Source of the DNA: Naegleria gruberi
Taxonomy: Eukaryota
DNA: 64,000 nt
Reading direction: 5' to 3' (one strand)
Assembly: GCA_000004985.1 (NCBI GenBank)
Contig: GG738848.1
Made by a program: the position numbers and the translations under genes. Shown piece by piece: positions 3,901 through 11,434 of this stretch; the first letter of the stretch is position 1; every line of letters begins with the position of its first letter. The notes below the pieces were generated by a model that was not told where the DNA came from, made no database searches, and was given only the letters and a program-made list of their open reading frames with translations.

Positions 3901-4604
3901 ATCATCAATTCAAGGATTGTTGCATAATAGTATCAATTCGAACATTAATGCATTGAATAATAATGTATCACAAACAACATTAGGTGGGATCAGTTAATTG
4001 TTGAATCCAACTACTGTTAATTTCAATCAACAAACAAGTCATCATTTTTAGCCAATTTACTTGGTTGACTCGATGACTCCTCACATTTTCTTTTCAACAT
4101 TTTTTTGTTATTAAAAATTAATTATTATTGTAATTATTAGTTAAAATATTACAAAATGTTCAACATCAAATCAATTTCCAATAAAGTAAAAGTCTATAAT
4201 TAGTCTTTGTATTGGCTCAACCAAATATTTGAGATTAATAATCTTTAACCACAATCCAATTCTTTTTTCCCTCTCAATCCGATCTACAACCTCACCATCA
4301 TCATGTATTGTTGGTTAAGTCGTAGCGAAAACTTAAACAAAAAACCCTTAAAAAAATTAGAAAAAGGGCCACCCGATAAAAACATCATAAAAAATGTGGG
4401 TGGTATACTGCGGCTTAACTTTTTAGCTTCAGACATGATCAGGTGGACTTTGTCTTTTATTAGCATTCATATTATGATGATAAATTTGAGACTAGAAAGT
4501 TAAATTGAAAGTGGGAAAGGAAACACTTTAAAATAATTTTATTGAATAATAGTATTCGGAATGGGAGTTTCGGATTACAGTTTTGGATCTTTTTCGTTAA
4601 AAAA

Positions 4605-5537
4605 ATGATTTCACTTGGAAAGGGAGCATTGCTTTCACTCTCATTGCTTATTCTTGTTGCTGTTCAACTTGCAACTTGTCAATATGTTACTTTTACATAC
4701 AATACTGGAAATGTGGCAAACAACAATACTGTAATGGAAATTAATTTAAAGGATGGCTCTACTATTAGAAAATCTAAATTGTCAAATGCAGAAATGTACT
4801 TTCAAATTACTGGATATGCCACAAATTATAATGAAATGAAAATGTACATGCTCTTTGGTGATAGTAATGAATTGTGGACTTTTGATGCTAAAACCTTGGC
4901 AATGGAAAAGAATATTTTGGGAATTGATGCCAGTGCAATTACTGATATTCAATTTGACCAAAAAACATCAACTCTTTATGCCATTGTTCAAAACGAGAGA
5001 AATTACATTCAATCCTATAATTTCAAAACTCAACAATTGGAAATTGTCATGACTTTCAACGATACTATGGCCACTATTTTGGGTGCTTCTACCTATGACT
5101 CTAAGAATGGAATTTACTATGTTGGTGGTGCTTTTGGAAAGAATAATGCTATTGTTGGATGTGATGTTAGAAATAGAAAGATTGTTTCTCAAATTCTCTT
5201 TTTAGATGGTGACGAATTCAATGGATTGAGCTATGATGGCCACACCAACAAGTTGCATGGATTGTATACTAAGGGAAATTGTACCACCGACTGTACCTCA
5301 ATGATTAGCATTGATGGATTGACTGGAAAGAGAGAATTCTGGCAACCAAAGAATCTTCCAATTGGTATCCTTGGTCTCTATTCAAACTCTGCTTATGAAG
5401 GTTTCTACTTTTATCAAGTTATCAATAATGGACTCTACAACTTTGGAATGATCAATTTGGCCACCAAGCAAGTAGTTAGAAATTACAGAATTTATGACAA
5501 TTTCATTTATGGTGCCTTCTTTAAGGACTTGATTTAA
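4605..5537 (+). CDS. Secreted hypothetical protein (signal peptide, repetitive beta-strand-rich body)
   Basis: ORF 4542..5537. The likely ATG is at about 4605 (MISLGKGALLSLSLLILVAVQLATCQ is a signal peptide). There are N-glyc sites and YVGG/LYxxG repeat-like motifs. No family was recognised. Confidence 0.45.
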   Translation: MISLGKGALLSLSLLILVAVQLATCQYVTFTYNTGNVANNNTVMEINLKDGSTIRKSKLSNAEMYFQITGYATNYNEMKMYMLFGDSNELWTFDAKTLAMEKNILGIDASAITDIQFDQKTSTLYAIVQNERNYIQSYNFKTQQLEIVMTFNDTMATILGASTYDSKNGIYYVGGAFGKNNAIVGCDVRNRKIVSQILFLDGDEFNGLSYDGHTNKLHGLYTKGNCTTDCTSMISIDGLTGKREFWQPKNLPIGILGLYSNSAYEGFYFYQVINNGLYNFGMINLATKQVVRNYRIYDNFIYGAFFKDLI

Positions 5538-5989
5538 ACTCATTCTAAATAATTTTACTGTTATGAATGGACTTTAATGAATTTTAACATGTTTTGGAAA
5601 TAAGGAAAACGATTCTTATTGATATTAATGTGTTTACCGTTGTATAGTTCAATTTCAATCCTGATGTTACATGTTTTTGGATTACTGTAACCTTTTCGAC
5701 ATTGTTCTCAAAAGATCCCTGCCATCTTCAAGATTCGGATGGCCTTTTCACTCTTTTGCACAGTAATTTAGTCTGTTTGTAATGGATCTTTGTGTGTCAG
5801 CAAGCCTAACCGAATCCATAATTATAAAAACAAGTCCATTCAAGAAAGTCATATTTCATCTATCCCTCAACAAATTAATGAAAATTGACAGGAATGGATT
5901 GCGTAGAGTAAGATAATAACATATTTAACGCTCTCTAATCCTTCCATTACACAAAACCATCACAAGAAAAAAAACTGTCAACAACACGA

Positions 5990-8900
5990 ATGTCAAAAAT
6001 CACATCCTGTCTTTTTGCCATTCTCTTGTTGTTTATTGTAGAAGGCATTAGAGCACAATGTCCACATGCTCAGTCAGGACTTTCACTCTTCTCCTCCCTT
6101 CCACAATGGAATGTACAAGGAGCAGACCTCGTAATTTCAACACCGGTCAAGGTTGACCAAACAGCAAGCGCCGTGCTTCGTTCTATCACAATCGCTAATG
6201 GTGGTTCACTCATATTTGATGATGCTATTTTGAATTTAAATGTTGAATTTATCAAGGTTGAAAAGGGAGGTAAATTCATTGCTGGTAGCGCTGATTGTCC
6301 AATTACAAAAAAGATTACAGTTACATGCTATGGTACTAGAACTTTAGAAAATATTATTGGTAGTGATCCATATGATAATACAGCAACTGGTTATAAGGGT
6401 ATTATTGCTATGAGTGGAGCTACTCTTCAATTACATGGTGCTGTTAATCGTCCAACTTGGACTAATCTTGCCGAAACTGTTGTTAAAGGTTCTAATCGTA
6501 TCAAGACTATTGATGCTACTCAATGGAAAGTAGGTGATAAGATTGTTTTGGCTTCCACTGACTTTAGTGAAGTTGTCCAATCAAGTGCCAAACTTCCATC
6601 ATGGATGACTGGTGGTTACAAATTCCCAGACCAAAATGAAGAACGTACTATTGCATCTGTTATTGATTCTCGTACATTTACTGTTGATTTACCATTCAAC
6701 TACACTCACTGGGGTGCAGGTTATCAAAGAGCTGAAGTTGGTATCTTGAATAGAAATATTGTTTTCAGAGGTGATAATTCAAGCGCTTCTCAAGCAGGTT
6801 ATGGTGGACATTTTATGATTCGTTTGTTGGATCATTGTGAAATTAGTGGTATTGAAGTTACTGGATTTGGTCAAAAGGGTGTTATGGGAAGGTTTGTAAT
6901 TCTTGAAAGTTTTTACAATTTTAACAATTTTTTTTTACAATTTTTGTAACATATTTTTGAATAATTGATAGATATTCTGTTCACTTCCACTTGTTGGCTT
7001 ATCACTCTGAAAAGATTGGTAAGCAATTCTTTATCAAAGATTCCTCAATCCATCACTCATTCCAAAGATGTATTGTTGTCCACGATACTAATGGTTTACT
7101 TGTCAAGAATAATGTTTGTTTTGATTCATTTGGACATCAATACTTCCTGGAAGATGGGCCTGAAAATGGTAATCAATTTATTGGAAATCTCGGAATTAGA
7201 GCTCGTCCTGTTGTCAGTGGAGATCCACAACAATTAATTCCTTCAGATCATGATGTTTCTATCTTTTGGATTACTAATCCAAATAACACATATATTGGAA
7301 ATGCTGCAGTCCAAGCAAAGTTTGGCTTTTGGTACACAATGCCTGTAAATGTAAGTATTCTAAATTTGTGAAATTTTAATTATTTTAAATTTTATAAAAA
7401 TTAAATAGCCAACTGGTTTGAGTGCTTCCACTTATGGAACTACTGTCACTCCAAGAAGACTTCCATTGGGTGCTTTTATCAATAATACAGCTCACTCTTT
7501 ATTTACTGGTCTCATGGTTGATGACATGGAAAAACCTGACGGTACTACTGAATTGGCTTCTTATTCCCCACCAGTTGAAACTTGGTTCGAAGGTTTGATT
7601 GCTTACAAGAATCGTGATCGTGGTTGTTGGGCAAGAGGAGGTCCACTTGGTTTCAATAATTTCATCTTGATGGATAACAGACTTGGCTTCCTTACACCTC
7701 CAGGTCCTAATATCTTGACAAACTCATTATTTGTTGGTGAAAGTGACAATGTTGGTGAGGTTGCTAGACCTACTATTGATCTTGGTGGTCGTTCTAGACC
7801 TGGTCTTTATTCTGCTGGTGACATTATTAAGGGTCATGACACTTATGATAATGGTGGTCCTCAATACATTAAGAATGTAACCTTCCTTAATTATGTAACT
7901 AATCAATATAGAAAGGCTGGTTCCCTGGGTCAACTTATGAATGCACCATTTAAGCATCAAAGTATGAATAGATATGTAGATTTAAAGTTTGATGATGCTA
8001 CTAACAGAGTTTACATTCATGACCAATTTAATGATGCCAATAGAGGTACCACCATTTTGGATATTGATGGTTCCGTAACTGGTAGATCTCCAGGTGGTTG
8101 GATTGTTGCTAATGACACTTTATTGACTAGAAAGGGTTGCACACCAGTTCCTCTCTGGCAAGGACATAATTGTCCAGTTGCTTTGGAAGGTTATTCTCAA
8201 TTCGCTGTTGTCAACCTTAATGGAGAATTTTCTACTGAAAGTGACACTGGTTCCTATCCTGATTTGAATGTAAAGGGAAAGACAGTTGCAAGAATGTACA
8301 CTCATGATTTGACTAGAGGACTTTCTAGCTCAGTAGTTGGTGCCTTCTCATCTGATGGTTTCTTTTATTTCCACTCCAATGTACTTGTCCGTAATTTCTA
8401 TGCTGTTCGTTGGGCATTTAACATTCCTACTCCACCAGCTCTCAAATTCTCATTGGGTTCAAGTGCTAACAATGAATGGATTGTTTTCAATATTCAATAT
8501 CCAAGAACAGCCGTTTTGGATATCACTTGGTCTTCTTACAGTCAATCAGTCAGACAACCAATGAAGAAAGCCAATAATTTACAACAAATTTTGGACGATC
8601 CAACTTATTACTATTACGATTCTGCATCTGAAAATCTTTTCATCCATTTGAAGAATAGAGCTGGTAGAACAGCATTCTCTGAAAGATTCAATTTAGTTGC
8701 TTATAGTTTTGATGGTTTCAATGTTGTTGTCAATGCCACATGTGCCAATAACAAGTGTGATGTTGATGATTACAGTTTACCAAAGGATGCTGAAAAGTTT
8801 ATTAAAAAGTACAATAGAGAAGATAGATTTGCTGGTGTCATGCAACCTTGTCAAATTGCATCATCTATGACAGCTGTTAAGGGAAGTGGTATTGTTTTTG

Positions 8901-10042
8901 CTGTTTTACTTCCAAATAGAAGAACTCTTGATGTTACTGTTCACCATGATCTTTCATTGATTGCTTCAAAGATGTCTATTGGTGTTGGTGAACCTGGAAG
9001 TGAAGAAAAGTTCATTTCTCAAGTTGGTGTCAAATATTCTCCATATTCCATGTCTAGATTCTCAGTTGACTTGTCCTATGATGAAATTGCTGCATTGTTG
9101 AAGGGTAAAATCTTTATCAAACTTCACACTTTTGATTATCCAGATGGTCATTTGAGAGGTCAATTACATTGTAACCATGGTGTTAGACCAAATGGTCATG
9201 CTGCTTGTCAAGTTCCACTCAGTATTTCAGCTGCCAAGCCATGTGATCCAGTTTCTAATTCTTTCGTTTTCTACACTGATGTTGAACAATCTATCAAATC
9301 AAGTTATTCCATTTATGGTTGGTCTGATACTGTTATTGATAGAAACTTTACTGCTGCTCCAATTTGTGGTACTTCATCAATTAAAACTTCCTTATGGAAG
9401 GGTGGATTCCAAGTTTCAAAGAGTTTCAAGGCTGGAGGTCCATACAATGTGGTTGATTTGAGTGTTTACAAATATTTCGAATTCTTTGTTAGAGGACTTT
9501 CCCAAGGACAAACAACTTTGAATATTTACTTTACTGAAATTGTTAATGATGCTGCCAAAGATATTTCAAGCATGTACATTGATCCAAAGTATATTCAACA
9601 TTTCAAGATTGATGATTCCAGAACTACCAGAGTTAGAATTCCAGTTGCTGATTATCCATTCACAAACAAGACTTCACTCAATGCTGTTCAAAGAGTTGGT
9701 TTCGTTTTGAATAATCAAGCTCAAGGTACAAGAGAATTGATCTTTGATAATTTGAGATTTGTTACTGGTGAAAATGACCAGTTGGAGGATTCTGCATTCG
9801 ACACTGCTCAAATTATTTCATTTGATAAGAAGTGGGGTATTTGTAATGCTGCCAATGTTGAAAATCCAGATCTTGATCCATTGAACGTTAGATTGACTGG
9901 TTTGGAAGTTGCCGAAGCTTCTGCCATTATTCCATCCAATTCATCTGCCCCAAGAACAAGTAACGCCACTCGTGGAGGTGTTAGTTCAATGATGGTCAAT
10001 CTTCTTATTGTTTTGATGATGCTCATTACTTTCAATCTTTAA
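5990..10042 (+). CDS. CEMIP/TMEM2-like secreted protein: signal peptide, G8 domain, right-handed beta-helix (PbH1) region, C-terminal CHRD-like domain and a hydrophobic GPI-anchor-type tail. It has 3 exons: 5990..6891, 6972..7350, 7409..10042
   Basis: Three track ORFs (5990..6949, 6991..7371, 7418..10042) join in frame across GT-AG introns at gtttgt...gatag and gtaagt...aaatag, giving 3915 nt or about 1304 aa. RCIVVHDTNGLLVKNNVCFDSFGHQYFLEDGPENGNQFIGNLG matches the CEMIP/TMEM2 signature (…GHCFFTEDGPEE…). KIFIKLHTFDYPDGHLRGQLHC is a CHRD-type motif. The protein ends ...RGGVSSMMVNLLIVLMMLITFNL. Confidence 0.8.
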
Positions 10043-10408: not shown

Positions 10409-11434
10409 TTAAATTCCACAAACAATGAGCATATCCACATATGGATAAATAAAGCTTTTGAACAAATGGTACCCATTATTAATTTCTTGATATGATACAG
10501 TTACTAGATCCAATTCATTCTTGAAGAAACACAAATACTTTTTCTTTTCATATTTGAAAAATTCCATTCTAAAGGTATACTGATTAAAGAGAAGACACCT
10601 CTCCTCGCAACAAATTAAATTTCCCTCCTCCTCAATACTTGAATCACTGAAAACATTACTCAGAGAAACGAGTAAATAATTAGATGTTGTAAAACCTCCA
10701 CTAATAGCAAGACTCAAATTTAACCAGTCCAATAGGAGATAAATTCTTCCTTCATCGTCCTGAGTCATGGCTAACACTCGATTAACTACACAATTATAAT
10801 AACCATTCCTTAATGCATTTTCCAAATTAAAGTTCTTCTTCTTTCCTCTTCCTGAAACTACTGAAATACCTTTCGGATAAGCAATGATTAATTCTTCTGC
10901 ATTCTTTCTACTCCTTTGAACAATCATTCCATCTGAAGTCTGAAACATCAAATCATCTGTTCCAATCTTTCCATCACTCACATGCACAACACCGAGACTG
11001 CAAGTCCTATTAGACGAGCATTCATTACTCGAATAATAAATCAAATCCTTCTCCCTAAATAACGAAAGCTTTCCTGGAAGATCCCCAAAACTACGAATCC
11101 ACATCACTTCACACGTTTTCTTTTTAAAATTCAACAAAAGTTTACACATCCCAGAAGCACAAAAAACAACCACTTGATCTCCATCATCATTACATAATTC
11201 CATCGCCGTTGGACGAACCAAATTCGAGACAGTTATCCGACACTTCTCCCTCAGTGTTGATAATCCATAAATTACTATGGCATTATTCTTGATGGTGAGT
11301 ATTTCTTGTTTTTTGTGGTGAATGGCAATGATCGGAAGTGCTGATAGAAGAGGTGCTGATCGTGATTGGCCCTTCGAAAGAATGGCACCTTGACGTGTTT
11401 GGAAGGGTAAGGGTCTGTGATAGAGTTGATTCAT
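10409..11434 (-). CDS. Hypothetical protein (341 aa), no recognisable domain
   Basis: Long uninterrupted ORF with coding-like composition. The 3' end is convergent with the CEMIP-like gene. Confidence 0.4.
   Translation of the reverse strand: MNQLYHRPLPFQTRQGAILSKGQSRSAPLLSALPIIAIHHKKQEILTIKNNAIVIYGLSTLREKCRITVSNLVRPTAMELCNDDGDQVVVFCASGMCKLLLNFKKKTCEVMWIRSFGDLPGKLSLFREKDLIYYSSNECSSNRTCSLGVVHVSDGKIGTDDLMFQTSDGMIVQRSRKNAEELIIAYPKGISVVSGRGKKKNFNLENALRNGYYNCVVNRVLAMTQDDEGRIYLLLDWLNLSLAISGGFTTSNYLLVSLSNVFSDSSIEEEGNLICCEERCLLFNQYTFRMEFFKYEKKKYLCFFKNELDLVTVSYQEINNGYHLFKSFIYPYVDMLIVCGI

Follow-up and report, generated by a model that had tools for sequence, protein, structure and literature searches.

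A CEMIP/TMEM2-type β-helix protein of Naegleria gruberi with a CHRD domain, a carbohydrate-binding-module-like domain and a putative glycosylphosphatidylinositol-attachment signal

The gene described here lies at positions 5990-10042 (+ strand) of a stretch of 64,000 nucleotides (nt) of Naegleria gruberi DNA (GenBank assembly GCA_000004985.1, contig GG738848.1), hereafter called the window. The architecture of its product can safely be described as a signal peptide, a TMEM2-type core of G8 domain, β-helix and domain X-like region that lacks the GG/lectin-like (GG) domains of the animal proteins, a CHRD domain, a carbohydrate-binding module (CBM)-like domain, a linker and a glycosylphosphatidylinositol (GPI)-type signal. 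Public databases already contain the gene, in mis-modelled form, together with its G8 and CEMIP domains, and CHRD matches have been precomputed for some relatives; what is new is the combination of a GG-less core with CHRD, CBM-like module and GPI-type tail, conserved across two amoebal supergroups. The favoured reading of this architecture, to which we assign a probability of about 0.6, is that of a secreted, GPI-tethered surface protein that cleaves or remodels a polysaccharide other than hyaluronan.

Domain architecture

Membership of the protein in the CEMIP/TMEM2 group, proposed in a first-pass annotation of this DNA, was borne out by the agreement of Pfam matches to G8 and CEMIP_beta-hel, alignment to TMEM2, and fold. 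Thus, Pfam searches of the spliced protein identified G8 (PF10162) at amino acids (aa) 42-161 (E 9.9e-23, 80.8 bits versus a cutoff of 22.9) and CEMIP_beta-hel (PF24606) at aa 271-460 (E 9e-63), both matches being far beyond chance. CEMIP_X (PF24605) was matched at aa 748-850 with 21.4 bits, which is below the cutoff of 27.6; this region also aligned to TMEM2, and the same family was matched by 13 of 15 relatives. A CEMIP-type parallel β-helix and the overall ectodomain fold were both found, and the next-best fold matches were polysaccharide depolymerases, lyases and epimerases. The N-terminal 870 or so residues are a right-handed β-helix ectodomain homologous to that of vertebrate TMEM2 and CEMIP, with the G8 region forming part of the helix.

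In the HMMER alignment with TMEM2 (CEMIP2, PDB 8c6i), residues 50-164 of the window protein were paired with TMEM2 chain residues 54-165 and residues 167-849 with chain residues 333-1058, while TMEM2 residues 166-332 had no counterpart (chain numbers are converted to UniProt numbering by adding 82, an offset deduced from the construct description in PMC10206443). The two proteins share the core of G8, parallel β-helix and, in the window protein with a sub-cutoff Pfam score, a domain X-like region as well as the motifs GRYxVHFH, SIHHSFxRC, GHxxFLEDGxE and FWIxxPNN. They differ in that TMEM2 has approximately 167 extra residues, which make up GG/lectin-like domain 1, between positions corresponding to aa 164 and 167 of the window protein, and in that the position of C-terminal GG/lectin-like domain 2 is occupied in the window protein by the CHRD and CBM-like domains. 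Both animal GG/lectin-like domains, the domain 1 insertion and C-terminal domain 2, are thus absent, and no Pfam match to the corresponding family (PF15711) was obtained with the window protein; among the matches listed, only animal ones carry PF15711.

The gene was assembled from three ORFs (open reading frames) on the same strand, which join in frame through two GT..AG introns to encode 1304 aa, as anticipated by the earlier reassembly of three ORFs into a protein of about 1300 aa. Removal of the introns leaves an uninterrupted frame of 3915 nt with 1304 codons. The features, all on the + strand, are as follows.

5990, +, start ATG
5990-6891, +, exon 1 (aa 1-300 plus 2 nt), containing the signal peptide and G8
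5990-6055, +, signal peptide (aa 1-22), within exon 1
6113-6472, +, G8 domain (aa 42-161), within exon 1
6800-7507, +, CEMIP_beta-hel Pfam match (aa 271-460), extending across both introns
6892-6971, +, intron 1 (80 nt, GTTTGT...AG)
6972-7350, +, exon 2, with the core β-helix motifs GRYSVHFH, SIHHSFQRCIVVHDTNG, GHQYFLEDGPENGN and FWITNPNN
7351-7408, +, intron 2 (58 nt, GTAAGT...AG)
7409-10042, +, exon 3 (aa 428-1304 plus stop codon)
8369-8677, +, CEMIP domain X-like region (aa 748-850), with a sub-cutoff Pfam score and alignment to TMEM2
8882-9166, +, CHRD domain (aa 919-1013)
9260-9763, +, CBM-like β-sandwich (aa 1045-1212), without a Pfam family
9800-9988, +, low-confidence linker with many small and polar residues (about aa 1225-1287), containing PDLDPLNVRL and candidate ω-site S1278
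9989-10042, +, hydrophobic tail MMVNLLIVLMMLITFNL (aa 1288-1304) and stop, a putative GPI-attachment signal
10040-10042, +, stop codon

Both sequence motifs on which the first-pass annotation had relied were present, GHQYFLEDGPENGNQF in exon 2 and HTFDYPDGHLRGQLHC in exon 3. Splicing of intron 1 recreates GVMGRYSVHFHLL, in which MGRYSVHFH aligns without gaps to the MGRYPVHFH found in human TMEM2, and the GRYSVHFH so restored at the exon 1/2 junction is conserved in TMEM2 and in all relatives.

The CHRD domain (PF07452), which had also been proposed, is real by sequence homology at the level of the family, although it is borderline in the window protein alone. Thus, the match at aa 920-1013 of the window protein scored 22.4 bits with the full-length sequence and 23.9 bits with the C-terminal fragment alone, just below the cutoff of 24.1, whereas CHRD was matched (E ≤ 0.01, best 5.3e-9) in 11 of 16 sequences that comprised this C-terminal fragment and 15 amoebal relatives, and additional family representatives passed the cutoff with 27-34 bits. 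An exhaustive phmmer search with aa 860-1270 against 1.84 billion cluster representatives gave 374 matches, many of them in multiple stretches at query positions of about 55-160, and reached Pfam-confirmed multi-CHRD proteins at E values of about 1e-27 to 1e-28. Those matches that were sampled carry 4-12 CHRD repeats by Pfam (e.g., P0129 and P0128, the latter with 12 repeats and E 6.4e-28 to the query). It is the combination of these results, i.e., the 11 matching sequences, the reach of phmmer to multi-CHRD proteins and the scores of the further representatives, that identifies the domain. What the window protein has in common with chordin and bacterial multi-CHRD proteins is sequence homology to PF07452 and to the proteins in which CHRD is repeated 4-12 times; it differs from them in having a single CHRD, inside a CEMIP-type protein.

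A further module after CHRD, missed in the first-pass annotation, was a β-jelly-roll superimposable on CBM structures. Comparison folds included CBM8 of a Dictyostelium discoideum GH9 endoglucanase (7t7z), with which the module has 17% identity and no sequence-profile link, as well as CBM30, CBM11, CBM22 and CBM29. No Pfam match was obtained for aa 1029-1224, and a 14-sequence family profile compared with PDB sequences identified no CBM, the only matches being spurious ones to DnaA (E about 0.04-0.1). Conserved within the family in this domain are E1118, D1162, D1207, TRVRIP and DNxRF. The ligands of the Dictyostelium CBM8, whose binding residues are W572, W574 and Y600, are cellulose and soluble β-glycans, glucomannan among them (PMC9079177).

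Relatives and invariant residues

Full-length relatives, with 35-55% identity over more than 90% of the protein, were found in Naegleria, Willaertia, Balamuthia and Planoprotostelium and among protist or metagenome entries, and the same architecture was noted in further 50%-identity cluster representatives. This architecture defines a family common to heterolobosean and amoebozoan amoebae. Among the matches listed, N. gruberi has at least three genes of this kind, N. lovaniensis at least six, and Willaertia is also represented; no protein of the pathogen Naegleria fowleri appears among the matches listed, which may reflect a real absence or a database gap. One of the relatives with the full CHRD and CBM-like architecture, P0014 of Balamuthia mandrillaris, is named "hyaluronoglucosaminidase" in NCBI, a name presumably carried over from vertebrate CEMIP/TMEM2.

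Animal, bacterial and amoebal members formed separate clades in a rough neighbour-joining tree of 702 well-aligned columns, which is too crude to choose between vertical descent and gene transfer. Bacterial proteins of approximately 800-900 aa with G8 and CEMIP_beta-hel share the G8 and β-helix core with the window protein (33-35% identity) and likewise lack GG, but they end after the β-helix region and so cover only about 50% of the window protein. Homology to animal CEMIP and TMEM2 extends up to domain X. CEMIP (KIAA1199/HYBID), a secreted member of the same β-helix family with an N-terminal signal peptide, carries two GG domains (PF15711) and a Mucin2_WxxW region and has neither CHRD nor a CBM-like domain. 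TMEM2 is displayed at the cell surface, as is proposed from sequence for the window protein, and is held there by an N-terminal type II transmembrane helix as opposed to the predicted C-terminal GPI-type signal of the latter. TMEM2 loops 627-662 and 733-756, which are reported to obstruct the mid-helix face (PMC10206443), appear from the HMMER alignment to correspond to segments roughly half as long in the window protein. Microbial (protist or bacterial) CEMIP-like proteins were not described in the literature searched.

Conservation within the helix was evident from an alignment of 21 sequences (8 amoebal, 8 bacterial or metagenomic and 5 animal proteins), in which 22 polar or aromatic residues were invariant across amoebal, bacterial and animal members. 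All of these are present in the window protein (E217, H240, E249, R255, Q295, Y302, H305, H307, R333, H338 and H356 in the first half of the set and E361, E365, D393, W400, N406, N453, H456, W501, N541, Y573 and D645 in the second). A check on the conservation of "catalytic acidic residues" was rejected as posed and this list of family-invariant residues was used instead. Conservation of catalytic residues cannot be scored because no such residues are established for either CEMIP or TMEM2 (PMC10206443).

Polysaccharide cleavage and polysaccharide binding

According to the reading that we favour, the GPI anchor would tether the protein to the outside of the plasma membrane, docking on a polysaccharide would fall to the CBM-like module and perhaps also to CHRD, and the concave face of the β-helix would cleave or remodel the docked polysaccharide at the cell surface. 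An invariant His/Glu/Asp cluster (H305, H307, H338, H356, E361, E365 and D393) is situated in this helix. A cleaving role is suggested because the fold neighbours of the protein are depolymerases, because the His/Glu/Asp cluster is invariant across three kingdom-level groups and because CBM-like modules are the usual companions of glycan-active enzymes. In addition, β-helices of the TMEM2 kind are described as a typical feature of enzymes that degrade polysaccharides (PMC10206443). As the first-pass annotation had reasonably supposed, the substrate is probably a glycan other than hyaluronan; likelier candidates are polysaccharides of the β-glucan type or others from microbes, biofilms or cyst walls. 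Hyaluronan, the substrate of CEMIP, is not known from Naegleria.

Several points weigh against this reading. The purified human sTMEM2 ectodomain did not degrade hyaluronan and no active site could be assigned in it (PMC10206443), and Sato et al. argued that human TMEM2 is non-catalytic, with a regulatory role proposed for it in place of an enzymatic one (PMC10276149). The sole substitutions reported to abolish activity, R265C, D273N and D286N, all fall within lectin-like domain 1 of TMEM2 (PMC10206443), i.e., in a domain that the window protein lacks. The enzymatic role of the non-animal members is putative, and the surroundings of bacterial homologues did not point to a substrate: the genes for P0031 and P0044 stand alone in their neighbourhoods with no polysaccharide locus, one of them next to an IS element, an integrase and a Kiwa defence system. 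The last domain is, in the modelled structure, CBM-like by fold alone; it is referred to as CBM-like and not as a CBM8 member because neither a Pfam match nor a profile-to-PDB link was obtained. Finally, the intron positions are predicted from the DNA, and GPI anchoring is predicted by sequence rules.

The TMEM2 results of PMC10206443 and PMC10276149 also speak for the main alternative, a non-catalytic surface lectin or adhesin, in which the β-helix, CHRD and CBM-like modules would only bind glycans of prey bacteria, the substratum or the cyst wall, without cleaving them, in a role of adhesion or recognition. Because catalysis by TMEM2 is contested, this alternative survives, and the presence of a CBM-like module together with a membrane tether would suit it. 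However, the helix core contains a dense group of invariant His, Glu, Asp and Arg residues, of a kind seen more typically at catalytic or metal sites than in scaffolds for binding, the structural neighbours are mostly depolymerases, lyases or epimerases, and it is usually to enzymes that CBM-like modules are attached (PMC9079177). Intrinsic activity of TMEM2 has moreover been claimed by another group, Narita et al. (PMC10474455), although named catalytic residues were looked for in that paper and none were found. On this evidence, a protein that binds without cleaving is unlikely.

The enzyme status of TMEM2 and CEMIP and the location of any active site are thus contested (PMC10206443, PMC10276149, PMC10474455), and it is in this respect that the amoebal family is of interest. 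It has kept all of the family-invariant polar residues of the β-helix, lost the lectin-like domains and acquired a CBM-like module, and this pairing of lectin-domain loss with CBM-like gain is the arrangement typical of real glycanases. With the invariant residues kept and the lectin-like domains dropped, the family offers a simpler system for testing catalysis and the active site. The specific proposal that the amoebal proteins represent a GG-less, CBM-bearing form of CEMIP/TMEM2 that is a true surface glycanase acting on a non-hyaluronan polysaccharide, which may for example be prey or biofilm exopolysaccharide or cyst-wall glucan, is put forward tentatively, as a possibility with less than an even chance. 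If it is true, the lack of the lectin-like insertions and the shorter loops over the helix face could make these proteins a tractable model in which to locate the active site of CEMIP/TMEM2, and they could help settle whether the β-helix is itself catalytic. The amoebal family also suggests a CEMIP/TMEM2 core that is older than hyaluronan or at least not tied to it. In Naegleria itself, a small set of putative glycan-degrading proteins, some anchored at the surface and others secreted, is indicated, with possible roles in biofilm feeding, encystment or excystment.

A bacterial G8/CEMIP_beta-hel gene (L001 8001-13285, L002) was situated between IS240-type transposase fragments and a phage-type integrase, the latter followed by a Kiwa (KwaA/KwaB) defence pair, which suggests that this gene rides on a mobile island.

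C-terminal tail and gene model

Only two strongly hydrophobic 17-residue segments were noted in the protein, one at each end, and no internal transmembrane segment was found by hydropathy windows. The first, at aa 4-20 (mean hydropathy 2.46), agrees with the signal peptide proposed earlier, shows the same layout in relatives and is likely, by inspection, to be cleaved after IRA22. The second is the tail at aa 1288-1304 (mean Kyte-Doolittle hydropathy 2.30), after which there is no charged or cytoplasmic residue. The protein thus ends ...SAPRTSNATRGGVSS-MMVNLLIVLMMLITFNL, and inspection placed before the tail a 7-residue polar spacer, TRGGVSS, and the small residues S1278 (ω) and A1280 (ω+2). 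Hydrophobic tails that are unrelated in sequence close 7 of 15 relatives (N. lovaniensis P0002 and P0005, Willaertia P0004, Balamuthia P0014, Planoprotostelium P0015 and EukProt P0012 and P0016). In contrast, Naegleria paralogues P0006, P0007, P0009, P0010 and P0011 end at ...NPDPDPLGIRKL/NL (PDPDPLGIRKL/NL) without a hydrophobic tail, whereas the window protein continues beyond the equivalent motif, PDLDPLNVRL, with an additional linker and the tail.

The C-terminus therefore appears to have the shape of a GPI-attachment signal, by standard rules as well as by the recurrence of similar tails in relatives, which is what the first-pass annotation had suggested. Paralogues that end right after PDPDPLGIRKL would be soluble secreted versions, so that the family looks like one with both anchored and soluble forms, the tailed window protein paralleling TMEM2 and the soluble Naegleria paralogues paralleling CEMIP by analogy. 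The literature lends general support: according to PMC9098846, the GPI transamidase is conserved in every eukaryote, and evidence of GPI-anchored proteins is mentioned in a pangenome study of Naegleria (PMC9928731); a Naegleria-specific report of the transamidase was not found in the literature searched.

Alternatively, the tail might be a C-terminal transmembrane anchor, or might be removed or irrelevant with the protein being secreted. Seventeen residues are barely sufficient to span a membrane, and several paralogues are evidently soluble. Nevertheless, the tail terminates the protein with neither cytoplasmic nor charged residues beyond it, the small residues at ω and ω+2 and the polar spacer are plausible, and the same layout occurs in relatives from two eukaryotic supergroups despite the unconserved sequence of the tail. 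A layout that is kept without conservation of the tail sequence is the usual signature of GPI signals. A protein without a GPI anchor is accordingly rated as improbable.

The closest database match to the window protein was N. gruberi NAEGRDRAFT_56847 (P0001), a "hypothetical / G8 domain-containing protein" of 1557 aa with 97% identity, the shortfall in identity being due to two differences in gene model and not to sequence divergence. First, the public model (window 4542-7067) joins an upstream ORF to residue 18 of the window protein, which requires an "intron" of approximately 530 nt that removes the stop of the upstream ORF together with the ATG and signal peptide of the window gene. Second, it over-extends intron 1 and so skips 32 residues, YSVHFHLLAYHSEKIGKQFFIKDSSIHHSFQR (YSVHFH...SFQR), among them Y302, H305, H307 and R333.

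That the 1557-aa form is correct, i.e., that the upstream ORF belongs to the same gene and the first intron here is longer, is hardly credible even though this is the form in which the gene is deposited, since the upstream ORF (ATG at 4605, stop at 5535-5537, + strand, approximately 310 aa) possesses its own signal peptide, MISLGKGALLSLSLLILVAVQLATCQ, as well as its own stop, the fusion intron far exceeds the 58-80 nt of the other two, the four residues named above are invariant in the 21-sequence family alignment (TMEM2 not included), and the YxVHFH and SIHHSFxRC motifs that the public model cuts align identically in TMEM2 8c6i. Moreover, nothing equivalent to the upstream gene adjoins the N. 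lovaniensis relative, and the relatives all open with a signal peptide and then (Q)CPH. On these grounds the three-exon model is preferred; NAEGRDRAFT_56847 is a mis-prediction, and its public gene model requires correction. The literature searched contained no mention of NAEGRDRAFT_56847 or its paralogues. The N. lovaniensis relative has more introns and different neighbours and neither supports nor contradicts the splice sites of the window gene.

With a G+C content of about 32-37%, the window is AT-rich; the introns of its genes are short and of the GT..AG type, and no second copy of the gene was found within the window. Downstream lies a convergent ORF of 341 aa (10409-11434, - strand); Pfam scans of the flanking ORFs (4605-5537, + strand, and 10409-11434, - strand) gave no match. 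Among the relatives, P0018 of Planoprotostelium fungivorum (2218 aa), which is annotated as "DNA ligase 4-like", combines G8 and CEMIP_beta-hel with DNA ligase domains and is probably another fused gene model.

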